Shown: one piece after another, positions 10,078 through 56,958 of the stretch
Layout of the letters: each line of letters opens with the position of its first letter
How positions within the stretch are numbered: position 1 is the stretch's first letter
Assembly (NCBI GenBank): GCA_964633995.1
Contig: CAZWKN010000001.1
Coordinates: 56,218 to 120,217, forward strand
Source: an uncultured Gammaproteobacteria bacterium
Lineage (GTDB): Bacteria > Patescibacteriota > Microgenomatia > CAZETR01 > Amesbacteraceae
Direction: 5' to 3'
Length of the DNA stretch: 64,000 nt
Notes under the pieces: generated by a model
What the model was told of the DNA's origin: nothing
What the model saw: the letters and a program-made list of their open reading frames with translations, nothing else
The model's database searches: none
Program-made: the position numbers and the translations under genes

Positions 10078-10844
10078 GTAAGAAAATGATTATTGGGATG
10101 TTGCATTTGGGAGATTTGTTGGGGGATCTGGATGTGGTGGTTGAAAAAGCCTTGTTTGATATAAATGCTTTGCAGAAGGGGGGCATAGACGGGATATTGA
10201 TTGAGAATTGGAAAGAAAAATCGGTGGGTGAGACGGTATCGGTAGAAACGGCCAAGAATATGGCCGTTGTAGCAGAGAAATTAGTTAATGATATTAAAGT
10301 GCCATTTGGATTTAATGTGCTTAATAATGACTATAAAGTGGCGTTTGGGTTGGCTAAGCAGTTTGGGGCGGCATTTGTGGAGCTGGATGTGTTTGTAGAC
10401 ATGGTGAGGAGTAAGTTTGTAAGCAATTTAGAGGCGAAAGCGCACCCGTTTGTAATTGATCCTAAGCCAAGTGAAATCATAAGCTGTGCGACGGTGCCGC
10501 TGTGGTCGTTTGTTCAACCCAAACATTATGAAATGCTGGATAAGGGGAAAACTATTGAGAAGTCAACTCAGCAGGCCATAGAGGCTGGAGTGGCGGCAGT
10601 TATAGTGACAAAGGCTACTGGAGTGTCGCCAACTTTGGAATTGGTAAAGAGAGTTAAAAAGGTAGCAGGAGAGACGCCAGTGGGAATTGGCAGCGGCTTA
10701 AATGAGCAAAATGCTCAAGAGCTGCTTCAAGTGGCTGACTTTGCAATTGTGGGAACGTATTTTAAAATAAATGGAATGGTTGATAATCCAGTGGATGTTA
10801 ATAGGGTAATAAAGTTAATGAAAAAGGCAAGACAGGAACTATGA
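10074..10844 (+). CDS. BtpA/SgcQ-family TIM-barrel protein (tentative)
   Basis: The N-terminal MIIGMLHLG resembles the BtpA family IGxxHL start. Overlapping stop/start with the neighbours suggests an operon. Confidence 0.45.
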   Translation: MSKKMIIGMLHLGDLLGDLDVVVEKALFDINALQKGGIDGILIENWKEKSVGETVSVETAKNMAVVAEKLVNDIKVPFGFNVLNNDYKVAFGLAKQFGAAFVELDVFVDMVRSKFVSNLEAKAHPFVIDPKPSEIISCATVPLWSFVQPKHYEMLDKGKTIEKSTQQAIEAGVAAVIVTKATGVSPTLELVKRVKKVAGETPVGIGSGLNEQNAQELLQVADFAIVGTYFKINGMVDNPVDVNRVIKLMKKARQEL

Positions 10845-15891: not shown

Positions 15892-15966
15892 TGGAGCCGG
15901 GAGGGAATTTTGCAATCCCGACCTGAGCTTTACAAAAGCCCTGCTCTACTTCTGAGCTATCCCGGC
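15892..15966 (-). tRNA. tRNA-Thr (anticodon TGT), CCA encoded, non-canonical T-loop
   Basis: Acceptor GCCGGGA/TCCCGGC, TA, D-arm GCTC-AGAAGTA-GAGC (no GG), anticodon stem GGGCT/AGCTC with loop TTTGTAA, T-arm GGGAT-TGCAAAA-TTCCC with a U·U mismatch and no TΨC, then T and CCA. Confidence 0.6.
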
Positions 15967-16205: not shown

Positions 16206-16247
16206 AGTGCTAAGTGCAAAGTACTAAGTACTAAGGGTTAGGGTTGG
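16206..16247 (+). repeat. Heptamer array: AGTGCTA AGTGCAA AGTACTA AGTACTA AGGGTTA GGGTTGG. It spans the stop codon of the S2P gene.
   Basis: Read directly from the sequence. Confidence 0.7.
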
Positions 16248-16825
16248 CCGATGAGGAGGTTGATGATGAGGTGGGAGATGGGAGAAAGAACTGTGGAGGC
16301 CAGGCCGGTAAAAATCAAAATCATAAGTAGTAGAAAGTGGGTTTGAGAAGGTGCGCCGTAGTGATTGGTAAAGATTTTGGACCCGTCTAATGGAGCGATG
16401 GGAATTAGGTTAAAAAGGGCAAGGTTTACATTGAGACTTATAAGAGAATAAAGGACAGTGCTAAGGGTAAAGGGCAAAGTACTAAGGCGAAAAATCAGAG
16501 AAAGTATAATTGCGAGAAGAAGATTGCTGGCGGGACCGGCTAAAGCAACCAGGCGGACATCTTTTGCGGGGTTTCTGAGATTGTATGGGTCAAACGGGGC
16601 GGGTTTGCCCCAGCCAAAGGTGCCGGTAACTAGCAGAATTAGCGTGCCCATGGGATCCAGGTGGGCTAGGGGGTTTAGGGTAAGCCTGCCCATCGATTCC
16701 GGGGTGGGGTCGCCCAGCCGGTCTGCCATAAAGCAGTGGGCGGCTTCGTGTATGCCTATGGCAATAATTATGCCGCCAAATATAACCACAAAAGCGAAGG
16801 GGTTGGAAAAAAGTAAACCGAGCAT
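16238..16825 (-). CDS. Site-2 protease family zinc metalloprotease (peptidase M50, small SpoIVFB-like)
   Basis: HEAAHCFMADRLGD (HExxH in a TM helix) and a downstream LDG motif; 195 aa polytopic. Confidence 0.7.
   Translation of the reverse strand: MLGLLFSNPFAFVVIFGGIIIAIGIHEAAHCFMADRLGDPTPESMGRLTLNPLAHLDPMGTLILLVTGTFGWGKPAPFDPYNLRNPAKDVRLVALAGPASNLLLAIILSLIFRLSTLPFTLSTVLYSLISLNVNLALFNLIPIAPLDGSKIFTNHYGAPSQTHFLLLMILIFTGLASTVLSPISHLIINLLIGQP
16457..16491 (+). repeat. Heptamer array: AGTGCTA AGGGTAA AGGGCAA AGTACTA AGGCGAA. It lies inside the S2P gene and encodes LSTLPFTLSTV.
   Basis: Read directly from the sequence. Confidence 0.7.
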
Positions 16826-22636: not shown

Positions 22637-23323
22637 GTGAATCAAATACAAGCTGACATTCTTACGAGTTTGGCTAAGTGTGAACAAGGGCTGAGATATT
22701 CGCAAATCAAGCCGCGGGAACTTGAGAGCGATAAGTTTAATTACCATTTGCAGACACTGGTGGGAATGGCCTGGGTTGAAAAGAATGGAAATGTATACAC
22801 CCTGACGATTGAAGGAAAAAAGTTTGTTGCGAACATGGATTTGTTGGGCAACTTGAAACAGACGTTCAAAGTGTCGGTAGTGTTGTATGTCGTAAATGGC
22901 GCTAAAATTTTGGCACAAAAGAGACTGCGACATCCGTTTTTTGGAGATATTACTTCGGTGGCCGGCAAGGTATTGCCCGGAGAAAAAATAGAAGCTGCCG
23001 CAAGTAGGAAGTTGAAGGAGGAGACTGGTTTGGTGGGTAGTTTTAAACTGTTGGGTGTGCACAGAAAAATTAGAAAAACCAAACAAGGTGAGGTGATTGA
23101 AGATACTTTTTACAATGTGTGTGTATGTAGGCGTCCTGAAGGTGAATTGGAAGAAAAAAATATGTTTGGGGAAAATTTTTGGGTCGAGTTTGGACAGATG
23201 ATTGAATGGGAAAAGAAAAATGCGGACACGGGTAAAACCGATATAGAGATCATTGAAAGGATTAGAGATAACAATGATGAGTTGTTTTATTTTGAAGAAG
23301 AAACTGTGGTGGAGAGATATTAA
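22637..23323 (+). CDS. Winged-helix DNA-binding domain fused to a NUDIX hydrolase domain
   Basis: N-terminal wHTH-like 70 aa, then the Nudix box GEKIEAAASRKLKEETG; GTG start. Confidence 0.6.
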   Translation: MNQIQADILTSLAKCEQGLRYSQIKPRELESDKFNYHLQTLVGMAWVEKNGNVYTLTIEGKKFVANMDLLGNLKQTFKVSVVLYVVNGAKILAQKRLRHPFFGDITSVAGKVLPGEKIEAAASRKLKEETGLVGSFKLLGVHRKIRKTKQGEVIEDTFYNVCVCRRPEGELEEKNMFGENFWVEFGQMIEWEKKNADTGKTDIEIIERIRDNNDELFYFEEETVVERY

Positions 23324-24108
23324 GGTTTGATACGCTGTCCTTTTGGATCGATGCTCCAGATGCCAGGCCAACCTGAAAAGGCTCTAAGTTTTCTTTCAAT
23401 TTCTAAATTCGAAACTCTAAGCTCCAAATAATCCTTTAATTGTTTGTAGTCAATGAAACCGTCCTGGCGGGTGAGCTTGTGGGTGTAAGTCGCAAGACTG
23501 TCGTCTTGCTCTTTTAGTGCTAAGTGCGAAGTGCTAAGTGCTAAGGATAGAAATAGATCTGCTCCAAGTTCAAAGAGGCGATTACCCAACGTGATCCAGG
23601 TGTCGGTGGGCAAGATTGTATCTTTTTGGACGGCCACAATTGGGCCATGGTCCATTTTTTCGTCCATTTGGATAATGGTGACGCCGGTATCGGAAACGCC
23701 ATCTAATATCTGCTGTTGAAGAGGAGAAGCTCCTCTATATTTGGGTAGTAGCGAAGGGTGAATGTTGTAAATATGACCATTAAATTTATCCAAAATTTCT
23801 TTGGGGATTATCTTGCCGTAGGCGGCGACTAAGCCAACTATATCACCCTCTTCGGTTCCCCCTCTTAAATTCTCACTTTCGGCTCGTGCCTTCGTCGTAA
23901 GAGGGGGAAAGGGGGTGATATTTTCAATAACTGGAATGTCATTTTTTTGGGCAAATACTTTGACTGGGTTGGGGGTGAGCCTTAGATGTCTTCCGGCCGG
24001 TTTATCGGAGTTGGTAACAACACTTAGTACTTTGCACTTAGCACTTAGTACTTTCTCAAGGACTATGATGGAAAAGGGGGATGAGCCAAAAAAGACGATA
24101 TCTTGCAT
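23320..24108 (-). CDS. fmt: Methionyl-tRNA formyltransferase
   Basis: N-terminal formyltransferase fold, the HPSLLPKYRG motif, and a C-terminal domain; adjacent to def. Confidence 0.85.
   Translation of the reverse strand: MQDIVFFGSSPFSIIVLEKVLSAKCKVLSVVTNSDKPAGRHLRLTPNPVKVFAQKNDIPVIENITPFPPLTTKARAESENLRGGTEEGDIVGLVAAYGKIIPKEILDKFNGHIYNIHPSLLPKYRGASPLQQQILDGVSDTGVTIIQMDEKMDHGPIVAVQKDTILPTDTWITLGNRLFELGADLFLSLALSTSHLALKEQDDSLATYTHKLTRQDGFIDYKQLKDYLELRVSNLEIERKLRAFSGWPGIWSIDPKGQRIKP
23516..23550 (+). repeat. Heptamer array: AGTGCTA AGTGCGA AGTGCTA AGTGCTA AGGATAG (inside fmt)
   Basis: Read directly from the sequence. Confidence 0.75.
24021..24055 (-). repeat. Heptamer array in the opposite orientation: CACTTAG TACTTTG CACTTAG CACTTAG TACTTTC. 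It lies inside fmt and encodes EKVLSAKCKVLSV.
   Basis: Read directly from the sequence. Confidence 0.75.
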
Positions 24109-25461: not shown

Positions 25462-26001
25462 CTAGATGGATACCTCTTCCCAGTCTTTTCCGGTGACGTG
25501 GAAGATTTTGGAATCTTGTTCAAGTGCCCGGTCGATGAAAAGGATGCCGTTTAAATGATCCATTTCGTGTTGGATGATATGCGCAGAGAATCCTGAAAAG
25601 GATTCTTGCACAGGACTAAGTGTTAAGGGCGAAGTGCTAAGTGTCTGGTACTTTACGGTGACGCTTAGGGAGCGTTTGATGGGAGAATAGTGGGCGGGAA
25701 TGGATAAGCAGCCTTCATAAACCCCGTTTTTAGTATCTGGGATTTGGAGGCGTTGGGAGTACTTGATGATTTCTGGGTTAATGAAAAGCTGGGGCTTTTT
25801 TTTGGGATTGGGGCGAATAAAGAATATGCGGAGGGAAATGCCTACTTGGGGAGCTGCAAGGCCGACCCCGACCGGGTTTTTGGCAGCCAGCAAGACTTTT
25901 TGCATGTGGGAAATGATGTCCAACACTTTTTTATCAAGTGTGGTGACAGATTTGGCGACTTGGCGAAGAACGGGTTCGGGAACTGTAACTATGTCTGACA
26001 T
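25462..26001 (-). CDS. def: Peptide deformylase
   Basis: GxGLAAPQ, EGCLS, and HEMDHLNG motifs. Confidence 0.9.
   Translation of the reverse strand: MSDIVTVPEPVLRQVAKSVTTLDKKVLDIISHMQKVLLAAKNPVGVGLAAPQVGISLRIFFIRPNPKKKPQLFINPEIIKYSQRLQIPDTKNGVYEGCLSIPAHYSPIKRSLSVTVKYQTLSTSPLTLSPVQESFSGFSAHIIQHEMDHLNGILFIDRALEQDSKIFHVTGKDWEEVSI
25612..25646 (+). repeat. Heptamer array: AGGACTA AGTGTTA AGGGCGA AGTGCTA AGTGTCT (inside def)
   Basis: Read directly from the sequence. Confidence 0.7.
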
Positions 26002-26005
26002 GAGC

Positions 26006-27970
26006 CTATTTTAACTGAAGATTTAAAAATTCGGCAGATTCGGATGCATTTGCTGCTTTGAGAGTTAGGTAGTCTTGAAAATATTTTTTGGCTAACACTT
26101 TATCACCAGCGTATTTGGCGATTATTCCCCGGTTGTAAGGAATTTTGGGATCTGTGGGTGAAATTTTGGTTGCACCTACCAATGCTTCGTCTGCTTTGGC
26201 AAAATAGCCTTGGAAATAAGTGGCAAGAACAAGCATGGCCCGGGATTTTGTCTTGTAATAATTAGGATGGTATGGACTTATGCTTATAGCTTTGTTGGCT
26301 GCGGCTTCGGCAATACTTACAAATTTGGCCGAGGTGGTGGCGTCAGTTTCGGCGGTTAGTAAGGCCATGTAAGCTGCTGGCACAGAAAGCTCGGAAATGA
26401 TGGCTGGTTCTTGGGGGTTTAAATTGTAGGCTTGGGAAAGGTGTTGATATGAGGATATGGCGTCTTTGGGGTCCTGGGTTTGGGAAAAGATGCGAAAGTC
26501 TCTTTGGCCTTTGGCAAAGCTGATGTCTGCAGACCAATAAGTAATTATTGCATATAACGTATAGCTTAGCGCAAATAATATTAAGGTGATGGAGAAAATT
26601 TGGGATTTCGATATTACAGATTGCGTATTGCGTATTGCGTATTGCGTATTTAGAGACATCGCAATTGCGGGGAGGAGGAAGAGGAGGATTTGAGTTATGA
26701 CAACCGAAAAACCCCAGAAATTCATGACAGAAATCGATGTCCAGCCGGCCGCTAGTCCGATTATCAAATATTTACAGTCTCGCATGCTCGAACTCCCCCG
26801 CACGGCGGGGTCTCGCTGCGCGTGCTCGCTTTGTAAATATTTGATAAATACAGTTGCCATGAACCCCAATAATAATAGGTATGCTGATAATCCAAACAGG
26901 CCGGTGTTGGCCAAATAATTTAAAAATTCATTGTGAGCTTTGTTGTAAAGAAGCTCCCATTCTGATGTGTAATTGTGTTCAATAGGGCGAAATTGATAGT
27001 AAGACTGCGCAAATGTTTCCGGGCCAGTTCCGAAGATAAAATTCTTGAGGGACGCTTGCCAAATACGTAAGGCGCCTGTCCAGACAATTTTTCTGATATT
27101 GCCGGACTCTGTCCCCCCGCCTTCCAGAACAGGGGTAGATGAAATACCAATTTCTAAATTCGAAGAACCAAATATTTTGTCGCGGATCGGGTTTTTGGTG
27201 ACCAACAGAAGGAGTATGAATATCGTGTTGAGGATCAGGAAGAGTCGGATTTTTTTTGTTTTGAACGTATAGAAGCCCCAAAAGAATACTGAGGAAGTTG
27301 CAAAAGCCAATAACCCTGAACGGGATTTGGTGAAAAGGAGGGTGAGAAAGAAAACAACGCTAATAGCATAGTGCATAATGCCTATAGATCTGTTTTTTGT
27401 TGAAGTAGCGAAAGATATGGGGATGAAGATGAGTGCTACTAGATAACTGGCTAGCCAATTGGGTTGGCCAAGAGTGGAGAAAACCCGGTTTTGGACGTCT
27501 TGAACCCAGGAGGCCGAGTCGATACCAAAGTGTTGCAGAATTCCATATACTGATACGAGTGCTGTAGTGCTAAGGGCTAAGGACAAAGTCCTAAGAGTTG
27601 ATCTCTGATCCATATAGGTGACATAGGCCCAGTAAAGAATGCTGTAGCAAATCAGAGAAAGCAGGCCGCCGTTGAATCTGCTGTAGTAGCCAAAAATGGA
27701 CATGTGGGGGTCGATGGAGAAGAAGAGACTAAGAGATTGAGTGATTAAGAAGATTAAGATGGCCAGATCCAAAATTGTGCGTTGAAAGACGAGTTTTTTT
27801 TGGATAACACTGTCAATGGCCCAGGAGCTGGTAATAATTGCCGTCAGAAAGTAGACGACGATCATTTTGTTGAATTCGAAAAGTTCGGAGGTAAAGGGGA
27901 GAAAGATAAGTGGAGTAATGATAAAAAGCAGATACATGCAGATGCGGATTGTTTTTTGAGGCCAGTGCAT
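26006..27970 (-). CDS. O-antigen ligase (Wzy_C)-like polytopic membrane protein with a C-terminal TPR domain
   Basis: ~10 TM helices, the AHNEFLNYLANTGLFG motif, C-terminal TPR-like repeats. Confidence 0.6.
   Translation of the reverse strand: MHWPQKTIRICMYLLFIITPLIFLPFTSELFEFNKMIVVYFLTAIITSSWAIDSVIQKKLVFQRTILDLAILIFLITQSLSLFFSIDPHMSIFGYYSRFNGGLLSLICYSILYWAYVTYMDQRSTLRTLSLALSTTALVSVYGILQHFGIDSASWVQDVQNRVFSTLGQPNWLASYLVALIFIPISFATSTKNRSIGIMHYAISVVFFLTLLFTKSRSGLLAFATSSVFFWGFYTFKTKKIRLFLILNTIFILLLLVTKNPIRDKIFGSSNLEIGISSTPVLEGGGTESGNIRKIVWTGALRIWQASLKNFIFGTGPETFAQSYYQFRPIEHNYTSEWELLYNKAHNEFLNYLANTGLFGLSAYLLLLGFMATVFIKYLQSEHAQRDPAVRGSSSMRDCKYLIIGLAAGWTSISVMNFWGFSVVITQILLFLLPAIAMSLNTQYAIRNTQSVISKSQIFSITLILFALSYTLYAIITYWSADISFAKGQRDFRIFSQTQDPKDAISSYQHLSQAYNLNPQEPAIISELSVPAAYMALLTAETDATTSAKFVSIAEAAANKAISISPYHPNYYKTKSRAMLVLATYFQGYFAKADEALVGATKISPTDPKIPYNRGIIAKYAGDKVLAKKYFQDYLTLKAANASESAEFLNLQLK
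26620..26654 (+). repeat. Tandem heptamer (ATTGCGT) x4 inside the O-antigen-ligase-like gene (encodes QYAIRNTQ)
   Basis: Read directly from the sequence; a different unit with the same 7-nt period. Confidence 0.8.
27558..27600 (+). repeat. Heptamer array: AGTGCTG tAGTGCTA AGGGCTA AGGACAA AGTCCTA AGAGTTG (inside the ligase-like gene)
   Basis: Read directly from the sequence. Confidence 0.7.
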
Positions 27971-30248: not shown

Positions 30249-31886
30249 TTGGGAATGAGGAAGTTTAGGCCGGGGGTGAGTTTTTCTGATTTTGTAGTTT
30301 CGGATATGCGAGCTACAAAATCGAAAATAGAAGATGACACTCCTAGGGATTATCGAAGAGGGTGGTTGATTTGGGTGGGGGTGGTTGTTTTGATGGCAGT
30401 TTTGCTTGTGAGACTTTTGACCATTCAGGTTTTCTATGCAGCGAGATATAAAGTATTGGCGGACCAAAACCGGATTAAAAAAATTAAACTTACGGCCCCC
30501 AGGGGCATAATTACTGATAGGAATGGAGTTGAGTTGGCCAGAAATGTGCTTCAGGGCGATAGTTATGTGCGGGAGTACCCCTTGGGGGAAGCGGGTGTTC
30601 ATGCGGTAGGTTATGTGGGACAAGTTAAAGAGGACGAAGTGGGGATATTAAAAGAGGCGGGTGGAAAATATGATCCCGGCGACATGATAGGCCGGAGTGG
30701 AATTGAGGCGGTGTATGAAAAAAGATTAAGAGGGCTTGATGGGGGAAGGCTGGTCGAAGTGGATAATGGGTTGAACGAAGTTCGGCAATTGGGTAAGAAG
30801 TTGCCAATTGCTGGCGAAAAATTGCAATTAACCTTAGATGCAGCTCTCCAGAGGGTAGCCTATGAGGCTATGGTGGGAAAGAAGGGGGCCGTCGTGGCTT
30901 CGGATCCGAGAACTGGGGAAATATTGGCATTGGTTAGCTCGCCAGGATTTGATCCAAATACAATCAGTGCACAGTACGCAAGGCTCAGTGCTCAGAATGA
31001 TTTGCCGTTTTTTAATAGGGCGATTGGTGGAGTGTATGCTCCGGGGTCGACTTTTAAAATGACGACCACAATAGCGGCGTTGAGTTCTGGAAAAGTGCCC
31101 TTTGGTTTTACTTGGGATGACCAGGGGATTATTAGGGTCGGAAGTTATAAGTATACAAACTGGTTATTTACGTCTAGTGGAAAAGTGGAAGGAGTGATTG
31201 GTTTTTCCAGAGCCATTGCTCGGTCGACAGACACTTTCTTTTATAAGGTGGGTGAGGCGGTTGGACCTGATGAAATTGCAGATTGGGCAAGACGGATGGG
31301 ATTTTCAAATAAAACGGGAGTTGATTTGCCGGGTGAGGTTGGGGGATTGGTAGTAGACCCAGAGTGGAAACAAAAACATAAGAATGAATCTTGGTTTTTG
31401 GGAAATACGTACCAAATGGCAATAGGCCAGGGAGATACTCTGGTTACACCTATTCAGGTCAATTTGATGACAAATATTATCGCTAGTGGTGGCAGAAAGT
31501 GTGGACTGCATTTAAACTCAATGCTCAGTGCTCAATGCTCAATGCTCAATATTTCACCTGAAATTTTGAAAGTTGTGAGGGCAGGGATGGTGGGGGCTTG
31601 TAGTGCTGGGGGAACAGCGTTTCCTTTGTTTGGATTTGTACCCCAAGTGGCGTGCAAAACGGGTACTGCAGAATATATGGCTGATTCAGGAAAGATTCGG
31701 ACACATGGTTGGTTAACGGCTATGGCTCCCGCTGATAATCCAACGATTTCAATTTCCGTATTAGTCGAAGCCGGTGGGGAAGGATCAAACTCCGCTGCTC
31801 CTGTTGTCAGAAAAATGTTGGCCTGGTACTTTGGAGTGGAGGACAATTACAATTATGCAGCAATCCCAAAGGGTGAGGGGGAATAG
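30249..31886 (+). CDS. mrdA: Penicillin-binding protein 2 (transpeptidase)
   Basis: N-terminal TM, PBP dimerisation domain, GSTFK (SxxK) and KTG motifs; follows mreB. Confidence 0.85.
   Translation: MGMRKFRPGVSFSDFVVSDMRATKSKIEDDTPRDYRRGWLIWVGVVVLMAVLLVRLLTIQVFYAARYKVLADQNRIKKIKLTAPRGIITDRNGVELARNVLQGDSYVREYPLGEAGVHAVGYVGQVKEDEVGILKEAGGKYDPGDMIGRSGIEAVYEKRLRGLDGGRLVEVDNGLNEVRQLGKKLPIAGEKLQLTLDAALQRVAYEAMVGKKGAVVASDPRTGEILALVSSPGFDPNTISAQYARLSAQNDLPFFNRAIGGVYAPGSTFKMTTTIAALSSGKVPFGFTWDDQGIIRVGSYKYTNWLFTSSGKVEGVIGFSRAIARSTDTFFYKVGEAVGPDEIADWARRMGFSNKTGVDLPGEVGGLVVDPEWKQKHKNESWFLGNTYQMAIGQGDTLVTPIQVNLMTNIIASGGRKCGLHLNSMLSAQCSMLNISPEILKVVRAGMVGACSAGGTAFPLFGFVPQVACKTGTAEYMADSGKIRTHGWLTAMAPADNPTISISVLVEAGGEGSNSAAPVVRKMLAWYFGVEDNYNYAAIPKGEGE
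30965..30999 (+). repeat. Heptamer array: CAGTGCA CAGTACG CAAGGCT CAGTGCT CAGAATG (inside mrdA)
   Basis: Read directly from the sequence. Confidence 0.6.
31517..31551 (+). repeat. Heptamer array: CTCAATG CTCAGTG CTCAATG CTCAATG CTCAATA (inside mrdA)
   Basis: Read directly from the sequence. Confidence 0.75.
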
Positions 31887-32575: not shown

Positions 32576-34546
32576 ATGGATTTGATAATTGTAGAGTCGC
32601 CAACCAAGGCCAAAACCCTGTCCAGGTTTTTGGGTAAGGGTTATGAAATTGAAGCTTCTTATGGTCATATAAGAGATCTGCCGCAAAAGAAATTAGGTAT
32701 AGATATGAAATCTAATTTCTTGCCAGAATATGTGCAAACGGATAAGCAGATTAAGAGGACTGAGGAGATTAAGAGATTAAGCAGCAAGGCTAAAACGATA
32801 TATCTGGCAACTGATCCTGACCGGGAGGGTGAGGCAATTGCTTGGCATGTGGGGGAAGTGCTAGGTACTAAGGGCAAAGTACTAAGACGGGTTACGTTTC
32901 ATGAAATTACCAAGAAGGCGATAGAAGAGGCGTTGAAACATCCCGGAGATGTAGACATGAAACTTGTGAATGCGCAGCAGGCAAGGAGAGTGTTGGACAG
33001 ATTGGTTGGATACAAATTGTCTCCATTACTGTGGAGAAAGATTAGAAAGGGATTATCTGCCGGTAGAGTGCAAAGTGTGGCGGTAAGGCTCATTGTAGAT
33101 AAGGAAAGAGAAATTGAAGCCTTTGTTCCCGAAGAGTATTGGGATATAAAAGTAGAGTTGCAAAAGTTGCACAGTTTACCAGTAGAACAGTTAACAGTTA
33201 AGTTGGTAAGTGAAGAAGTTAAGAACGGAGAAGATGCGAGTAGGGTCGAAAACGATCTTAGGGTGGCGGAGTTTGTGGTGGTGGGGGTGGATAAAAAGAA
33301 AGTAACTAGACTGCCGTTGCCGCCGTTTACAACTTCTACCTTGCAGCAGACTGCGGCCAATAAATTGGGTTGGAGTGCGAAAAAGACGATGCAAGTGGCG
33401 CAGAATTTATACGAAGAAGGATTAATAACCTATCACAGGACTGACTCAGTGAATATAGCATCTGAGGCAAGTGCTCAGTGCTCAGCCCTCATAGTTTCCC
33501 AATTTGGAAAAGAGTTTGCGTTGAATACGCCGAGACTATTTAAAACCAAATCTAAGTCGGCTCAGGAGGCGCACGAAGCAATAAGACCGACGGACGTCGG
33601 GCAAATTGCAGATCGCTTATCGCTAATTGCAAATAAGGACCAGGGGCGATTGTATGAACTGATTTGGAAAAGGTTTGTGGCTTGTCAGATGGCAGAGTCC
33701 ATAGGGGAGAGTGTAAAAGTAAAAATTCAAGCAGGAAGATATGGATTGGAGGCCAGAGGATTAACTATTAAGTTTGAAGGATGGCAAAAGGTGTACGGTG
33801 TCGATAAAGAAGAAGATGAGGGGGTGAAGTTGCCGGAGCTAGAATTGCAAGAGAAGTTGGATTGTGTGGATGTTTTGAAAACTCAGAAATTTACCCAACC
33901 GCCAAGTAGATATAATGACGCCAGTCTAATAAAAGCCTTGGAAGAGATGGGTATAGGTCGGCCTAGTACCTATGCGCCGACGTTGTCGACAATTGCTGAA
34001 CGTCAGTATGTAGAAAAAGTGGAGAAAAGGTTTAAACCAACGGCGTTAGGGATTGCGGTGAATGATTTTTTGGTAACTAATTTCGAGAAAATCGTGGATT
34101 ATCAGTTTACTGCCAAAATGGAAGAAGAGTTGGACGAGATAGCTGGTGGTGAAATGGAATGGCAGCCGGTTATCGCCCAGTTTTACGAACCGTTTGAAAA
34201 AGAATTAGACCGGGTACAGGAAGTTTCGGTGAGAGTGAAGGTGGAGGCCGAGTTGACTGGAGATAAGTGCCCTGATTGTACTTCGACGGGCTCAGTACAA
34301 GTTGGTGACGTGGTGGTCAGGATCGGAAAGTTTGGAAGATTTTTGGCATGTAGCCGGTATCCGGAGTGTAAATATAAAGCTAATTACCAACACAAGGTGG
34401 GTGTAAAGTGTCCGAAATGTGGGACAGGTGAAGTGATCATGAAAAAGACCCGTAATATGAAGACGTTTTTTGGTTGTAGCAATTATCCACAATGTGAATA
34501 CGCGAGTTGGAATAAGCCTGTTGTTTCAGCGACGGTAAGTGTGTGA
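32576..34546 (+). CDS. topA: DNA topoisomerase I with C-terminal zinc ribbons
   Basis: Toprim IVESPTKAKT, the active-site Tyr region GLITYHRTDS, and multiple C4 zinc ribbons. Confidence 0.9.
   Translation: MDLIIVESPTKAKTLSRFLGKGYEIEASYGHIRDLPQKKLGIDMKSNFLPEYVQTDKQIKRTEEIKRLSSKAKTIYLATDPDREGEAIAWHVGEVLGTKGKVLRRVTFHEITKKAIEEALKHPGDVDMKLVNAQQARRVLDRLVGYKLSPLLWRKIRKGLSAGRVQSVAVRLIVDKEREIEAFVPEEYWDIKVELQKLHSLPVEQLTVKLVSEEVKNGEDASRVENDLRVAEFVVVGVDKKKVTRLPLPPFTTSTLQQTAANKLGWSAKKTMQVAQNLYEEGLITYHRTDSVNIASEASAQCSALIVSQFGKEFALNTPRLFKTKSKSAQEAHEAIRPTDVGQIADRLSLIANKDQGRLYELIWKRFVACQMAESIGESVKVKIQAGRYGLEARGLTIKFEGWQKVYGVDKEEDEGVKLPELELQEKLDCVDVLKTQKFTQPPSRYNDASLIKALEEMGIGRPSTYAPTLSTIAERQYVEKVEKRFKPTALGIAVNDFLVTNFEKIVDYQFTAKMEEELDEIAGGEMEWQPVIAQFYEPFEKELDRVQEVSVRVKVEAELTGDKCPDCTSTGSVQVGDVVVRIGKFGRFLACSRYPECKYKANYQHKVGVKCPKCGTGEVIMKKTRNMKTFFGCSNYPQCEYASWNKPVVSATVSV
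32857..32891 (+). repeat. Heptamer array: AGTGCTA GGTACTA AGGGCAA AGTACTA AGACGGG. It lies inside topA and encodes EVLGTKGKVLRRV.
   Basis: Read directly from the sequence. Confidence 0.7.
33466..33491 (+). repeat. Heptamer array: AGGCAAG TGCTCAG TGCTCAG CCCTCAT (inside topA)
   Basis: Read directly from the sequence. Confidence 0.6.
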
Positions 34547-34558
34547 TATATTTGAAGC

Positions 34559-35152
34559 ATGAGAGCTAGGGGTTTGTTTGTAGTGTTGTATGGTCCTGAG
34601 GGAGTGGGTAAAAGCAGACAGGCGGGACTTTTGGAAGAGCGATTAAGAGACGAAGGGGTGTTGGTTAGAAGAGTCAGATATCCCGTATATGAAGCCGGAA
34701 AAACGGGAGCGCAATTGGATGAGATGTTGCATAGAAAAAAGATTTCTTTGGATGAAAAGGATATGCAGAAGTTGTTTGCGAAAAACAGGAAAGAATTTGA
34801 ACCTACCTTGAAGGCCTGGCTTAACTCAGGGATGACAGTGATTGCCGAAGGTTACAAGGGGACCGGGATTGTGTGGGGGGTGACCAGAGGGCTAACTGTC
34901 GAGCAGATGGATGAGATAAACGAGGATACTTTGGATCCTGATTTGTCTATATATATTGATGGACCAATGAGAACAGAAATGGCCGATCCGGCCCATCCGT
35001 ATGGGGATGAAGAAGAATGGTACCAGCTGAGAAAGACATATTTTCAAATGGCAGATAGGTATGGATGGATTAGGGTGGGTGGAGATGCGCCGATACTAAC
35101 GGTGGCTTCCAGGATTTGGGCTGTGGTTAAACCAGTTGTGGGATCGAGGTGA
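34559..35152 (+). CDS. Thymidylate-kinase-like P-loop kinase
   Basis: VVLYGPEGVGKSRQ Walker A and small-kinase size. Confidence 0.5.
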   Translation: MRARGLFVVLYGPEGVGKSRQAGLLEERLRDEGVLVRRVRYPVYEAGKTGAQLDEMLHRKKISLDEKDMQKLFAKNRKEFEPTLKAWLNSGMTVIAEGYKGTGIVWGVTRGLTVEQMDEINEDTLDPDLSIYIDGPMRTEMADPAHPYGDEEEWYQLRKTYFQMADRYGWIRVGGDAPILTVASRIWAVVKPVVGSR

Positions 35153-36590: not shown

Positions 36591-37778
36591 ATGGACGACG
36601 TGGTGTTTGGGTTGATTGAAAAAGAACAGCGAAGACAGGGGGAGACGCTGGCTATGATTCCTTCTGAAAATTATGTTAGCAAACAAGTGCTCAGGGCTCA
36701 GGGTTCAGGGCTTGGTAACAAATACTCTGAAGGGTATCCCGGAAGACGGTATTATCAGGGTAATAAAATAATTGATGAAATCGAGAATTTAGCCATAGAA
36801 CGAGCTAAAAAGTTGTTCAATGTGGATTATGTAAATGTCCAACCCTATTCGGGTAGTCCGGCGAATTCGGCAGTGCTGATGGCTCTTTTGGAACCCGGAG
36901 ACAAAATAATGGGTTTGAAATTGTCAGGCGGCGGACACCTGACACATGGGCACCCTAAAGTAACTTTTTCAGGAAAATTTTTTAATTCGGTGCAGTATGA
37001 TGTAAATTCTGATGGGTGGATTGACTATGATGAGGTAGAAAAATTGGCGAAAGCAGAAAAACCCAAATTAATGATAATTGGAACGACTGCGTATCCTAGA
37101 ATATTTGATTTTAAGAGATTTAAGGAAATCGCGGATGGGGTGGGTGCAAAGGTTTTGGCTGATATTTCTCATATTGCGGGACTTGTGGTGGGTGGAGTGC
37201 ACCCTAGCCCGGTAGGGTTTGCCGATGTAATTACCACCACAACCCATAAGACTTTACGGGGGCCGAGGGGGGCGATGATTATGACAAATGACGTTGAACT
37301 GGCGAAAAAAATTGACAAAGCAGTGTTTCCCGGACTGCAGGGTGGACCACACAATAATACGACGGCGGCGATTGCTGTTTGCTTGGGTGAAGCCGCAACG
37401 CCAGAATTTACATACTATGCAAAGCAGGTGGTAAATAATGCGAAGGCTTTGAGTGAAGAACTCGTGAAACTTGGGTTTAAATTGACTACGGGTGGGACGG
37501 ATAATCATTTGATGGTTATCAATTTGGGTGGTGGAGGTAAGGATGCGGCTGAGGATTTGGAAAGGTCGGGAATAATTGTAAATTATAATACCGTGCCGCA
37601 TGATCCCAACCCCCCCGCTAATCCATCGGGAATCCGACTAGGAACTCCGGCTTTGACTACCAGGGGGATGAAGGAAGGCGAGATGAGAGACATCGCCCAG
37701 ATGATATTTGAGGTGATTAAAAACAAGAAACAGGTTAGTGTGTTGGAGTTGTGCAGAAAATTTCCATATGATTTTTGA
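36591..37778 (+). CDS. glyA: Serine hydroxymethyltransferase
   Basis: The PLP-site TTTTHKTLRGPRG and the N-terminal SENYVS...AQGS...NKYSEGYPG region. The start was moved to the ATG at 36591 by homology with E. coli GlyA. Confidence 0.9.
   Translation: MDDVVFGLIEKEQRRQGETLAMIPSENYVSKQVLRAQGSGLGNKYSEGYPGRRYYQGNKIIDEIENLAIERAKKLFNVDYVNVQPYSGSPANSAVLMALLEPGDKIMGLKLSGGGHLTHGHPKVTFSGKFFNSVQYDVNSDGWIDYDEVEKLAKAEKPKLMIIGTTAYPRIFDFKRFKEIADGVGAKVLADISHIAGLVVGGVHPSPVGFADVITTTTHKTLRGPRGAMIMTNDVELAKKIDKAVFPGLQGGPHNNTTAAIAVCLGEAATPEFTYYAKQVVNNAKALSEELVKLGFKLTTGGTDNHLMVINLGGGGKDAAEDLERSGIIVNYNTVPHDPNPPANPSGIRLGTPALTTRGMKEGEMRDIAQMIFEVIKNKKQVSVLELCRKFPYDF
36686..36713 (+). repeat. Heptamer array: AGTGCTC AGGGCTC AGGGTTC AGGGCTT. 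It lies inside glyA and encodes the conserved VLRAQGSGL.
   Basis: Read directly from the sequence. Confidence 0.6.
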
Positions 37779-44910: not shown

Positions 44911-45888
44911 ATGAGACTGGGTGAGTTTGATTACGAACTGCCGAAGGAGTTGATTGCTCAAGTGCCAGTGGAACCCCGGGATAGTAGTAGGTTGATGGTG
45001 GTAAGCCGAAACACGGGGAAAATCGAACATGATTATTTTTATAATTTGCCAAACTATTTAAATTCCTCTGACCTGATGGTTTTTAATGAAAGTAAAGTGT
45101 TTCCGGCAAGACTTTTTGGAAATAAAAAAACCGGAGGCAAGGTGGAAGTGCTACTACTTTCTAGGGTAGATAATACTAGTTGGAAATTTATTGGGAAAAA
45201 TCTACGAGGGGTTAGAGAGGTTGGGTTTGAAGGAAACTTGACTGCTAATATTGTTCGACCCGGGGTAATAAAATTTGATTGCGAAGATACCGAAATGATG
45301 CCTTTATTAAATCGGATTGGGTACACTCCGTTACCACCTTACATCATTACAAATCGCTTATCGCATAATGCGAATATAAGGCGAAGGTATCAGACGGTGT
45401 ATGCAAGGGATATGGGAAGTGCGGCGGCGCCGACGGCAGGACTGCATTTTACAAAGAAGTTAATTAAGAAATTAAGAGATTTAGAAATTCAGCAGGAGTT
45501 TGTAACTTTGCATGTGGGACTTGGAACCTTTTTACCCGTAAAAGCTGAAAATATTGAGGAACATAAAATGCACTCTGAATTTTTTAGAATAGACCAAGAA
45601 ACAAGAAACAAGATACAAACAGCAAAGAGGGTTGTAGCAGTTGGGACGACGAGTGTAAGGGTGCTGGAAAGTGATTGGTCGAAGAATGAAACTGATATTT
45701 TTATATATCCGGGTTATAAGTTTAAAAATGTTGGGGCAATGATAACTAATTTCCATTTGCCCAAGAGTTCGCTTTTGATGCTGGTGTCGGCATTTGCAGG
45801 GAAAGAATTGATTTTTGAGGCTTACCGTAAGGCCATAGAAGAAAAATATAGGTTTTTTAGTTTTGGGGATGCTATGATCATTTTATGA
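44911..45888 (+). CDS. queA: S-adenosylmethionine:tRNA ribosyltransferase-isomerase
   Basis: N-terminal MRLGEFDYELPKELIAQ and QueA family motifs. Confidence 0.9.
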   Translation: MRLGEFDYELPKELIAQVPVEPRDSSRLMVVSRNTGKIEHDYFYNLPNYLNSSDLMVFNESKVFPARLFGNKKTGGKVEVLLLSRVDNTSWKFIGKNLRGVREVGFEGNLTANIVRPGVIKFDCEDTEMMPLLNRIGYTPLPPYIITNRLSHNANIRRRYQTVYARDMGSAAAPTAGLHFTKKLIKKLRDLEIQQEFVTLHVGLGTFLPVKAENIEEHKMHSEFFRIDQETRNKIQTAKRVVAVGTTSVRVLESDWSKNETDIFIYPGYKFKNVGAMITNFHLPKSSLLMLVSAFAGKELIFEAYRKAIEEKYRFFSFGDAMIIL

Positions 45889-47434: not shown

Positions 47435-47620
47435 ATGGCCACTATTGTGCGCAAGAAACCAGGTCAATCAGAAGATAAACTTATTGCCGATTTTCGAAAA
47501 AAAGTTCTCAACGACGAGATTCTTTTGGAGCTTAAAAAGAAGGAGTTTTATAAAAAACCTTCTTTGGTAAAGCAAGAAAAGTTAAAAGAACGTCGAAAAG
47601 GAAAGCGGAGAGTCTATTGA
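47435..47620 (+). CDS. rpsU: 30S ribosomal protein S21
   Basis: MATIVRKKPGQSEDKLIADFRKK... typical S21. Confidence 0.85.
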   Translation: MATIVRKKPGQSEDKLIADFRKKVLNDEILLELKKKEFYKKPSLVKQEKLKERRKGKRRVY

Positions 47621-48051
47621 TGTTTGACCGAATTAGGACTGATTTAACACTCGCAATGAAAGCGTCTGATGCGCTGGTTGTGTCGGTGCTTAGGATGCTG
47701 TTGTCCGAGTTAAATTACAAAAAAATAGATCTTCAGCGCGATTTGGTGGACGATGATGTGTTGGCCGTATTGGCTCGGGAAGTAAAAAAACGTCGGGAGT
47801 CTATTGAATCTTACACTGCGGGTGGCCGGATGGAGCAAGCTGAGCAAGAAAGATTGGAACTGGCTATTTTGCAAAAATATATGCCGAAGATGATGAGTGA
47901 GGATGAGGTGAGAGAAGAGATTAAGCGATTAAGCGAGAAAGAGATTAAGGGGTTGAGTGATTTTGGGCAGATAATGCGTGTGGTGTCGCCCCTGTTTAAG
48001 GGCAGGGCGGAAGGGTCTGTGGTGGCTAAGATTGTAAAAGAGCTGACATGA
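47617..48051 (+). CDS. GatB/YqeY domain protein
   Basis: YqeY-family sequence; conserved position after rpsU. Confidence 0.75.
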   Translation: MMFDRIRTDLTLAMKASDALVVSVLRMLLSELNYKKIDLQRDLVDDDVLAVLAREVKKRRESIESYTAGGRMEQAEQERLELAILQKYMPKMMSEDEVREEIKRLSEKEIKGLSDFGQIMRVVSPLFKGRAEGSVVAKIVKELT

Positions 48052-56284: not shown

Positions 56285-56958
56285 AAAAGGTTAGTGTGAG
56301 GGGGGTGATATTTGATTTGGATGGGACGGTGTTTGATAATGAGGGAGAGTGGGAAGCAGCCTTTAGGGTCGTAATGGACAATGGACATTTGACAATTGAC
56401 AATGGAGGGAGGAATGGGTGGGTGCATGAGCCGGGGATTGGGATAGGGCCAAATTGGCGGAAGTTGATACCCCATGATCCAGCAAAGATTGAGAAACTGA
56501 CATTGGAAACATGCAAAGTCTATCAGGAACAATTTGCCAGTTTGAGGGTAAGGGATGGACTATTAGATCTCGTGGAAAAAATTAAGGAGAAAGGACTTTT
56601 GACCGGACTGGCGACGGGAAGTAGTTGGAACATGGTGGAAAGAGAATTGGAAGAGCTTAATTTATACTTGGCTTTTGACGTTACTACTACTGGCGAAGAA
56701 GTATTGGTGCAAAAACCTGATCCGGAAATATATTTACTGACTGCAGGTAAGTTGGAATTGGATCCAACTGAGTGTGTAGTTATTGAAGACGCCGTTGCTG
56801 GCGTGCAGGCGGCGGTAGAAGCCGGGTGCCGGGTGGTGGGAATAAAATCTGAATATGCCAGTGAGGAAATGCTTAAGAATGCGGGGTGTGAATGGGTGGT
56901 GGAAAGTTTGGAAGAGGTGGCAGATTTGATTTTAGTTGACGAGGGGAGTATACTATAA
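56281..56958 (+). CDS. HAD-superfamily hydrolase (beta-phosphoglucomutase-like)
   Basis: Motif [10 protein letters not shown], plus motif II/III-like segments. Confidence 0.75.

Follow-up and report, generated by a model that had tools for sequence, protein, structure and literature searches.

Heptanucleotide arrays embedded in core genes of an uncultivated Amesbacteria-like bacterium

The window analysed here is a stretch of 64,000 nt from contig CAZWKN010000001.1 (assembly GCA_964633995.1), which belongs to an uncultivated, Amesbacteria-like groundwater bacterium of the Candidate Phyla Radiation. Short arrays of tandem 7-base units lie inside its core genes, including topA (topoisomerase I), fmt (formyltransferase), def (deformylase), glyA (serine hydroxymethyltransferase, SHMT) and mrdA (penicillin-binding protein 2, PBP2), and most of these patches replace existing codons (about 10) with little or no change in protein length. 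We cautiously lean towards regarding them as coding-embedded heptanucleotide simple sequence repeats (SSRs) that out-of-register templated copying creates and keeps homogeneous, with selection filtering the result.

Period-7 arrays in the window and its relatives

Among periods 3-12, period 7 alone is enriched in the window, with eight strong arrays as against 0.01-0.03 in mono-, tri- and hexanucleotide block shuffles; the other periods within 4-12 gave 0-3 arrays each. The pattern (AGTRCTA)x4 with up to three mismatches has six matches in the window, and 0.00 were expected from 100 dinucleotide-preserving shuffles. Arrays related to AGTGCTA, AGTACTA, AGTGCTC, AATGCTC or AGGGCTC lie in fmt (two), def, a Wzy-like gene, PBP2, topA (two), glyA, an open reading frame (ORF) with an HExxH motif and one non-coding spot, and unrelated units were found in the Wzy-like gene (ATTGCGT), queA (CAAGAAA) and a HAD hydrolase gene (AATGGAC). 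Further unrelated units across genomes include AAATCCG, AAAGTCA, GGAGTCA and CTGAACA. A single hyper-abundant motif was rejected as an explanation, given this variety of units and the absence of any array unit from the 30 commonest 7-mers of the window.

The array census covered the window and seven Amesbacteria loci, syntenic or partly so (L082-L088), from NCBI, ENA, JGI and Logan assemblies. In these 171 kb we counted 44 period-7 arrays of 26-44 bases (3.7-6.3 units), about 38 of which (~86%) lie inside called genes (topA, fmt, def, glyA, mrdA, wzy, queA, folD and an M50 protease gene); their frequency in coding DNA is about 1 per 4 kb. The controls were 80 TopA loci from other phyla among the matches listed. 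Two of them from other Patescibacteria, L012 and L015, are exceptional, with 10 and 3 arrays, and after their removal the remaining ~1.25 Mb contains four such arrays. The array density is about 40 times that of the non-Patescibacteria control loci. The arrays are a trait of the whole clade, that is, of Amesbacteria-like Microgenomates and at least some other Patescibacteria, and they have the properties of heptanucleotide SSRs: at least three head-to-tail 7-base units, and an excess over chance and over other periods.

The closest TopA, Fmt and GlyA homologs are 60-77% identical to the proteins of the window, and the named ones are labelled Candidatus Amesbacteria. Because an array is translated into a cyclic heptapeptide, it can be recognised even in homologs for which the DNA is lacking: (AGTGCTA)n reads S-A-K-C-stop-V-L, (AGTGCTC)n reads S-A-Q-C-S-V-L and (AAATCCG)n reads K-S-E-I-R-N-P.

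A metagenome scan yielded more than 120 loci with AGTGCTA-type arrays, in hosts with a GC content of 29-74%; most of these arrays are long, perfect and intergenic, and an inverted copy often follows. The few matches of Candidate-Phyla-Radiation-like composition are 30-base coding arrays with an AGTGCGA stop-repair unit, and viral contigs gave four matches. In L012 (7228-7261/7271-7305 and 14736-14770/14778-14816) and in the metagenome loci L090, L107, L108 and L161, an intergenic array is closely followed by its inverted complement. Such inverted intergenic pairs of other bacteria are potential long hairpins just past stop codons, with tracts of up to 31 perfect units.

Replacement of codons in place

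These data raise a central question: do the arrays enter genes as inserted units, or do they replace sequence that was already there? An earlier note on this DNA had proposed replacement. The second patch of topA (32576..34546, plus strand; TIGR01051, 765 bits) bears on this directly. topA-2 (33470..33490, plus strand; AGTGCTC AGTGCTC AGCCCTC) is read in the sense direction and encodes SAQCSAL in a helix of invariant length; it aligns with E. coli TopA without gaps, and its anchors are 38 residues apart in 119 of 120 homologs, so that the length neutrality claimed for this patch was borne out. The topA genes of L086 and L087 are 78% identical in DNA and 81% in protein. At the topA-2 site, L086 reads AAT GCT CAG TGC TCA GTG CTC ATT GCT CAG AAA (4.7 heptamer units) and L087 reads GCG TTG ATG GTT ACT TCG TTC ATC GTT GAT CGA; over this 33-base tract the two are 33% identical with no gap, as against 82-94% in 11-codon flanking windows. 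The replacement is sharp-edged and free of indels. Since the L087-like peptide (..MVTSFIV..) is widespread among homologs, it is the array that looks derived.

The same tract is unexpectedly similar between more distant genes. The topA genes of L085 and L086 are 68% identical gene-wide, yet they agree at 31 of 33 bases (94%) in the topA-2 tract, where third codon positions match in 11 of 11 cases; the corresponding values are 0.53 and 0.47 in the 40-codon flanks and 0.47 gene-wide, and the chance of 11/11 at 0.47 is ~2.5e-4. Between the window and either L085 or L086, 8 of 11 third positions agree. On a neighbour-joining tree of 120 TopA sequences, built with the patch site masked, the seven carriers of the QC[S/A] signature need seven changes, a number equal to that for shuffled labels. 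As a separate observation, the L086 topA gene (P0002, 10001-11935) has four heptamer arrays (at 10285, 10693, 10906 and 11034), three of them of the AGTGCTC family; a heavy load is possible in one essential gene.

Could this sharing reflect very short-tract homologous recombination, following DNA uptake, between co-occurring Amesbacteria species? Such exchange would concern the spread of arrays and not their origin. It is consistent with the scatter on the tree, which is as random as in shuffles, with the provenance of L085 and L086, which come from one aquifer project and have the 31/33-identical patch in common, and with the recurrence of a non-heptamer cassette (LNNSPLPFPSLSQREGPEVS) at the second Fmt patch site in several homologs. 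Moreover, four synonymous differences within 25 bp of an otherwise identical 7 kb point to short-tract exchange in this population. However, the elevated identity of the L085/L086 tract ends exactly at the 33-base array, which is shorter than usual recombination tracts, and recombination leaves unaccounted for the period of 7, the many unit families and the arrays in non-homologous genes; we therefore consider it an unlikely explanation. The differences just mentioned lie in tmk (34559..35152) at 34804-34828; they are all of the four differences from L001 in 7058 bases, all are synonymous, and they look import-like. No other copy of the alternative version was found within the window.

The first topA patch, topA-1 (32857..32887, plus strand; AGTGCTA GGTACTA AGGGCAA AGTACTA AGA), is also read sense and encodes (E)VLGTKGKVLR. 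The AGTGCTA-type array reported here by the earlier note is real, as it fits (AGTRCTA)4 with 3 mismatches in 28 bases and none is expected by chance; the label 'near-perfect' was generous, since its self-similarity is only moderate, with lag-7 matches at 14 of 29 positions, and the array went unreported by Tandem Repeats Finder (TRF) even at score 30. The E. coli TopA sequence that the note had given proved correct, and the local sequence IAWHVGEVLGTKGKVLRRVTFHEITK aligns with it at topA-1 with identical spacing and no gaps. The patch lies within the 16 residues between the AWH and FHEIT anchors, where distant controls (69) most often have 16 residues and Amesbacteria-like homologs (120) most often 15, which corresponds to a net length change of 0 relative to E. 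coli and 0/+1 overall. The L085 ortholog carries GTGCTAGGTGCTAAGGGCCAAGTGCTAAGT at this site. Among relatives the topA-1 loop ranges from 13 to 31 aa and is lengthened by arrays; (AAATCCG)n in L084 adds 6 aa.

In glyA, the array (36686..36713, plus strand; AGTGCTC AGGGCTC AGGGTTC AGGGCTT) spans the SHMT motif that lies between SEN and NKY, where it encodes VLRAQGSGL. It aligns without gaps (net length 0), with identical spacing in 87 of 87 homologs, and a period of 7 runs across this motif in all four genomes compared. To call VLRAQGSGL universally conserved was an overstatement: the conserved pattern is V-x-x-A-x-G-S-x-L-x-NKY, and the array provides the variable residues. In about 14 homologs the site reads SAQCSVL, in which the usually conserved Gly has become Cys (AQCS); among relatives this Gly is changed to Cys or Ser. 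The array of the window has T>G at unit position 3 in three of its four units, as against 1 of 12 elsewhere, and it extends one unit further than the glyA array of L083.

The first fmt patch, fmt-1 (24018..24052, minus strand; AGTACTA AGTGCTA AGTGCAA AGTACTA AGTGTTG), is sense to the gene, encodes VLSAKCKVLSV and aligns without gaps (net length 0) with three solved Fmt structures (3tqq, 1fmt and 3r8x). The peptide VLSAKC[K/Q/S/P/L]VLS recurs in many Fmt homologs. The second, fmt-2 (23516..23546, plus strand; AGTGCTA AGTGCGA AGTGCTA AGTGCTA AGG), is antisense to fmt and encodes LALSTSHLAL; it is 2 aa shorter than the solved structures and has the length found in most Amesbacteria Fmt proteins, so that of the two fmt patches described as length-neutral, the first is strictly so. 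At this second site other genomes carry different heptamers at about equal length. Their peptides include LSLALSTSHLAL (TAGCACT) and LNSQFSIFNQ (CTCAATT), as well as two with stop repair, LLKIENCKLKIQ (AAAATTG, TGA->TGY) and LLNTEH[R/W/Q]TLNIQ (CTGAACA, TGA->CGA or TGG). A non-heptamer cassette, (L)NNSPLPFPSLSQREGPEVS, occupies the site in P0130, P0139, P0149, P0166 and P0170, homologs that otherwise differ (for example, only some have a VLSAKC array at site 1), and this hints at a cassette-like exchange of patches between lineages. The Fmt protein itself (23320-24108) has 262 aa and matches positions 3-236 of 315 of TIGR00460 at 187 bits, under the curated cut-off of 201.5; its C-terminal tRNA-binding domain seems to be shortened or missing, which also applies to most of 120 homologs (226-315 aa).

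Different units at one site are also seen in mrdA and in a Wzy/O-antigen-ligase-like gene. The PBP2 array (31517..31550, plus strand; (CTCAATG)4.9) encodes NSMLSAQCSMLN, and each of the four genomes compared carries a period-7 array here, made of CTCAATG units in the window, of CTCATTA/CTCAGTA units in both L082 and L085, and of xTCAAAW units in L083, whose array has A at unit position 6 in 5 of 5 units, as against 0 of 15 elsewhere. Judged from orthologs only, the window is 2 aa shorter here than its three relatives. The transmembrane-helix array of the Wzy-like gene (27566..27593, plus strand; AGTGCTA AGGGCTA AGGACAA AGTCCTA) is read antisense as LSLALSTTAL, and at this helix four genomes have four different period-7 sequences with zero gaps. 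A further array in the same gene (26620..26650, plus strand), perfect (ATTGCGT)4.4, is read antisense as NTQYAIRNTQ and has a unit that is stop-free in both orientations; the length of the Wzy linker differs by up to 4 aa. Since a transmembrane helix and a conserved SHMT motif are covered, the patches are not restricted to variable loops, as the earlier note had supposed. In queA, a CAAGAAA-type array (45593..45618, plus strand) encodes QETRNKIQ in a region 4 aa shorter than in solved QueA structures and is therefore no insertion, and the HAD-hydrolase array (56373..56406, plus strand; (AATGGAC)4.9) adds 2 aa relative to 1te2.

The def patch (25612..25646, plus strand; AGGACTA AGTGTTA AGGGCGA AGTGCTA AGTGTCT) is antisense to def and encodes LSTSPLTLSP. 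It was said to differ in length by about 3 aa and to be length-neutral; in fact it is 5 aa longer than solved Def structures and 11-18 aa shorter than three Amesbacteria orthologs, which have array-derived inserts of 24-31 residues at this site. It is a genuine indel hot spot.

Thus, the net length change is 0 at four sites (topA-2, fmt-1, glyA and the Wzy helix) and between -4 and +2 at five (topA-1 0/+1, fmt-2 -2, PBP2 -2, queA -4 and HAD +2). Replacement rather than insertion describes most patches, which are no insertions relative to the orthologs or structures compared; it does not describe def or the array-lengthened loops of relatives, and the reading of the patches as length-neutral conversion is in this sense partly supported.

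An alternative in which whole-unit slippage or a mini mobile element of ~30 bases inserted the arrays, and compensating deletions later restored the length, would draw on these tolerant loops (def site +5 to +23 aa, topA-1 13-31 aa, L084 +6 aa), on the dispersed-element look of a 24-mer identical at two loci (see below) and on the perfect intergenic arrays of up to 31 units in other bacteria. We consider it improbable. None of the 11 coding arrays of the window is a clean whole-unit insertion of +21, +28 or +35 bases, and four of them occupy sites without length variation in 87-120 homologs. An insert of 7 or ~31 bases would shift the frame of an essential gene, which makes the intermediates lethal; as a one-unit slip is likewise a frameshift, arrays at sites of invariant length cannot be the product of normal microsatellite growth. 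Finally, both edges of the L086/L087 tract are free of indels, and neither terminal inverted repeats nor target duplications were seen at the arrays. A miniature mobile element was rejected for the same reasons: net lengths near 0, no indel in that tract and no terminal structure.

A second, weaker repeat family has a period of 8 and AAGAGATT-like units with 72-85% matches. It was found in the Wzy-like gene (27723-27759, antisense), topA (32743-32781, EEIKRLSS), queA (45462-45489, KKLIKKLRDLEI) and ORF 47617..48051 (47915-47949, EEIKRLSEKEIKGLS). This family may reflect either a further repeat at the DNA level or a helix motif of EEIKRL type that these proteins have in common.

A DNA-level cause and a protein-level filter

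Another important question is whether the common cause of the arrays lies in the DNA or in the encoded peptides. The AGTGCTA-type unit is read sense in fmt-1 (VLSAKCKVLS) and antisense in fmt-2 (LALSTSHLAL), and it is unread in a non-coding array (16206..16236, plus strand; AGTGCTA AGTGCAA AGTACTA AGTACTA AGG) directly 3' of ORF 16238..16825. Moreover, the 24-mer AGTGCTAAGTGCAAAGTACTAAGT is identical at 16206-16229, in this non-coding array, and at 24022-24045, in fmt patch 1. One unit occurring in sense, antisense and non-coding positions, together with this 24-mer, places the cause on the DNA and not on the peptide. A degenerate array (16457..16486, plus strand; AGTGCTA AGGGTAA AGGGCAA AGTACTA AG), antisense in the HExxH membrane-protease-like ORF, has 16 bases in common with topA patch 1 (AGGGCAAAGTACTAAG). 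Some 240 bases from the non-coding array lies a fourth tRNA of the window (15895-15966, minus strand), adjoining tRNA-Tyr, which ARAGORN missed and the Rfam tRNA model detects at 50.3 bits. A known RNA family was rejected as an account of the arrays, since the Rfam matches were tRNAs only.

Chance, an assembly artefact or convergence of the proteins on a favoured peptide is hardly credible in view of these results. VLSAKxKVLS does resemble the native helix-turn-strand of Fmt (LLSSGHNVVGV in E. coli), and the topA-1 patch is degenerate. However, shuffles contain close to no arrays, convergence of peptides would explain neither the use of one DNA unit in sense, antisense and non-coding positions nor the third-position identity of 11/11, and the arrays recur, with reading frames intact, in independent NCBI, ENA, JGI and Logan assemblies.

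The encoded protein nevertheless leaves its mark. Perfect (AGTGCTA)n has a stop codon in all frames of both strands, and every coding AGTGCTA copy has a unit variant that removes it: TAA->AAA in topA-1 and fmt-1, and TAG->TCG in fmt-2 and def. At the position of the unit TAA, the residue is one substitution away from TAA in 28 of 30 Fmt, 38 of 48 TopA and 19 of 27 GlyA homologs. The consensus unit is stop-free as read in 29 of 38 coding arrays and on the other strand in only 6 of 38; among arrays with just one open orientation, 24 of 25 are read in that orientation. It is largely shown by these observations that a selection filter acts on array orientation and stop repair, and stop-codon avoidance fully accounts for the orientation of the C-type arrays. 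We also observed that, in the window and L082-L088, 32 of 38 consensus units of coding arrays would contain a stop if read antisense, compared with 30-45% expected for random heptamers, and that TCA, TTA and CTA are frequent in these units as read.

Genome-private variants common to several units of one array, as in the glyA array of the window and the PBP2 array of L083, are a signature of homogenisation within arrays. Among the possible accounts, we infer that patch conversion or templated repair, which the earlier note had suggested, fits the data best. Arrays would arise, spread at their edges and stay homogeneous by templated copying at least one 7-base unit out of register: a growing strand would mispair one unit off, copy a few bases and realign, which amounts to gene conversion among neighbouring units. 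Candidate routes are a transient misalignment of strands and a switch of template while DNA is replicated or repaired, and conversion may also take place between arrays at different loci, as the unit family common to many non-homologous sites and the shared 24-mer would allow. Because out-of-register copying swaps a block without adding or removing bases, about 10 codons would be overwritten in place. Selection would then retain only sites that tolerate the cyclic heptapeptide (S-A-K-C-*-V-L or S-A-Q-C-S-V-L), only the stop-free orientation, and arrays whose unit stop has been removed by point substitution; in tolerant loops, arrays may also alter length. The indel-free 33-base tract, the unit-phased variants, the synonymous excess and the extra unit of glyA relative to L083 are as out-of-register copying predicts. 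As for the unit length, the account of Mrazek 2007 given in PMC4679880 names heptanucleotides as the commonest SSR class of most bacterial genomes and relates a proposal that a polymerase contact of ~7 bases favours slippage, which is the one published idea on the 7-base step that we found.

Hairpin- or cruciform-driven slippage was rejected, as seven arrays folded as single-stranded DNA gave z of -1.2 to +1.3 relative to shuffles. The arrays gave no hint of the adenine-specific mutagenesis of a diversity-generating retroelement, and their targets are housekeeping genes; no systematic search for such an element was made.

Several observations weigh against out-of-register copying. The excess of within-array over orthologous-unit identity (of 7) is modest, at 5.17 vs 4.96 in glyA and 5.45 vs 4.67 in PBP2, and in topA-2 the former is not above the latter. 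No donor, enzyme or intermediate was identified: in the search for ectopic donors, the 24-mer at two loci is suggestive, with a chance match being possible because ~10 arrays are drawn from few unit variants, and the stretches in common within L086 are trivial perfect units. Array copy number and sequence are unchanged between two assemblies of one population, possibly of one sample (the window is 100% and 99.94% identical to two SRR8893623 contigs), which offers no direct sign that the process is still active. The narrow array size, ~33 +/- 4 bases, is unpredicted by simple slippage, and out-of-register copying does not account for the 7-base step. Finally, orthologous sites keep their unit type (A-type at topA-1; C-type at topA-2, glyA and PBP2), which selection on a functional DNA element would also produce.

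This last point leads to the possibility, which we rate as rather unlikely, that the arrays are selected functional DNA elements around which the proteins have adapted, as has been argued for HIP1 in cyanobacteria. Candidates would be binding arrays for a nucleoid, segregation, cold-shock or ribbon-helix-helix protein, with a 7-bp unit per subunit, or strand-oriented chromosome signals. Orthologous array positions are conserved across deep divergence (topA-1, PBP2 and glyA in four genomes), synonymous-site identity in arrays is far over background, and there is a characteristic array size of 4-5 units; in addition, 7 of 8 A-type arrays lie on the G-rich strand irrespective of gene direction. 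Precedents are the conservation of HIP1 in ORFs, read as evidence for selection (PMC5861425), and CspB, which binds heptamer repeats with one protein per heptamer (PMC4679880). Against this, the many unrelated units, sometimes differing at one site between genomes, make a single sequence-specific reader unlikely, the array is absent at the same site in close relatives with no visible cost, isolated units are not over-represented, and the strand bias is not significant given the ~2:1 G:C composition. A replication-strand signal is not supported on the latter ground, as composition alone leads one to expect a bias of ~2:1.

The strand asymmetry itself is pronounced. GC skew in the window is +0.33 overall and +0.21 to +0.41 per 4-kb window, and it is still +0.21 to +0.24 at 22-28 kb, where the genes are on the minus strand, one strand having about two G for every C; in the relatives it amounts to 0.28-0.33 (L083, L084 and L086-L088) or 0.13-0.15 (L082 and L085). 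In UBA1400 Microgenomates, G/C disparity has been attributed to unusual, possibly unidirectional, replication (PMC7143001). A bolder extension of templated copying, which we offer as speculation, is an active and so far undescribed 'heptamer-writing' process of Patescibacteria, in which replication- or repair-linked templated synthesis would overwrite tracts of ~30-35 bases chromosome-wide, essential genes included. It might operate through polymerases that switch template in a fixed 7-base register or through the incorporation of ~30-base repeat oligonucleotides, and it would continuously recode proteins, perhaps in connection with the replication behind the extreme G/C strand asymmetry.

Known repeat systems and meaning of the arrays

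In the literature searched, we found no earlier description of heptamer repeats in Amesbacteria, Patescibacteria or the Candidate Phyla Radiation. The nearest relatives of the arrays are the heptanucleotide SSRs of other bacteria, namely, the STRR of cyanobacteria, GGGNATC of Xanthomonas and Nostoc (PMC4692102) and TAACTGA of Beggiatoaceae (PMC4679880). With these they share tandem 7-base units, several families per genome, lineage-specific abundance, about four units, which are preferred in bacterial heptanucleotide repeats generally (PMC4692102; PMC4679880), and polymerase slippage as a proposed origin. Known bacterial heptamer repeats are mainly intergenic and under-represented in ORFs (PMC4692102); here, in contrast, ~86% of arrays lie in core genes, are short and interrupted at unit stops, and mostly replace codons without a change in length. 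What is new is the setting and mode, dense short arrays in core genes with codons overwritten in place.

Similarities to other systems are partial. Like HIP1 of cyanobacteria (GCGATCGC; PMC5861425, PMC4390886), the arrays are abundant short DNA in ORFs, with orthologous positions conserved beyond protein need. The same debate, selection versus biased repair, applies to both; HIP1 is one fixed palindromic octamer in single copies, whereas the arrays consist of many unrelated units, always in tandem, and isolated units are not enriched. HIP1 is said to have spread by substitution and not by insertion (a result ascribed to Robinson et al. in 1997). Templated mutagenesis at imperfect direct repeats has reportedly been described in phage T4 and E. 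coli by Kunkel, by Ripley, and by Schultz and Drake in 2008. Its clustered substitutions, which homogenise neighbouring repeats at constant length, resemble the L086/L087 tract and the concerted unit variants; it is known as a rare laboratory mutational class and is not known to shape genomes with a fixed 7-base step.

Phase-variable coding SSRs, such as the neuO heptanucleotides of E. coli K1 (PMC13001214) and the tetranucleotides of Haemophilus (PMC2651432), also have non-triplet repeats inside a reading frame. These contingency SSRs are long, perfect and copy-variable and act as on/off switches, typically of surface or modification genes, whereas the arrays are short, interrupted and stop-repaired, lie with intact frames in essential and housekeeping genes, and are identical in two assemblies with no copy-number differences; a phase-variable contingency locus was rejected on these grounds. 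The tandem repeats of Borgs, which give rise to disordered protein regions (PMC9879509), are similarly pervasive and fast-evolving within ORFs of an uncultivated lineage. The arrays differ from them in that an imperfect 7-base unit overwrites conserved sequence. Borg ORF repeats are said to have unit lengths divisible by three, to be perfect and to add new sequence. DNA uptake sequences, which Findlay and Redfield reportedly treated in 2009 for Pasteurellaceae and Neisseriaceae, are similar in that a DNA-level drive puts a motif into genes and favours tolerant protein regions and acceptable frames; they consist of a single motif, unlike the tandem arrays, and we found no evidence here that links heptamer arrays to DNA uptake.

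As every slip in a non-triplet repeat causes a frameshift, one would expect essential genes to lose such repeats. In this lineage, non-triplet arrays are present in topoisomerase I, formyltransferase, deformylase, SHMT and PBP2, and a conserved SHMT motif has been rewritten. If they result from templated, length-neutral copying, protein sequences across a major uncultivated radiation would be subject to a mutational force of a new kind. The clade would also offer a tractable test system for the heptanucleotide excess of bacteria, as coding arrays would log events on a conserved background. In that case, alignment, phylogeny and dN/dS estimates for Candidate Phyla Radiation genomes would be affected as well, since the patches would be convergent at the DNA level and would violate site-independence.

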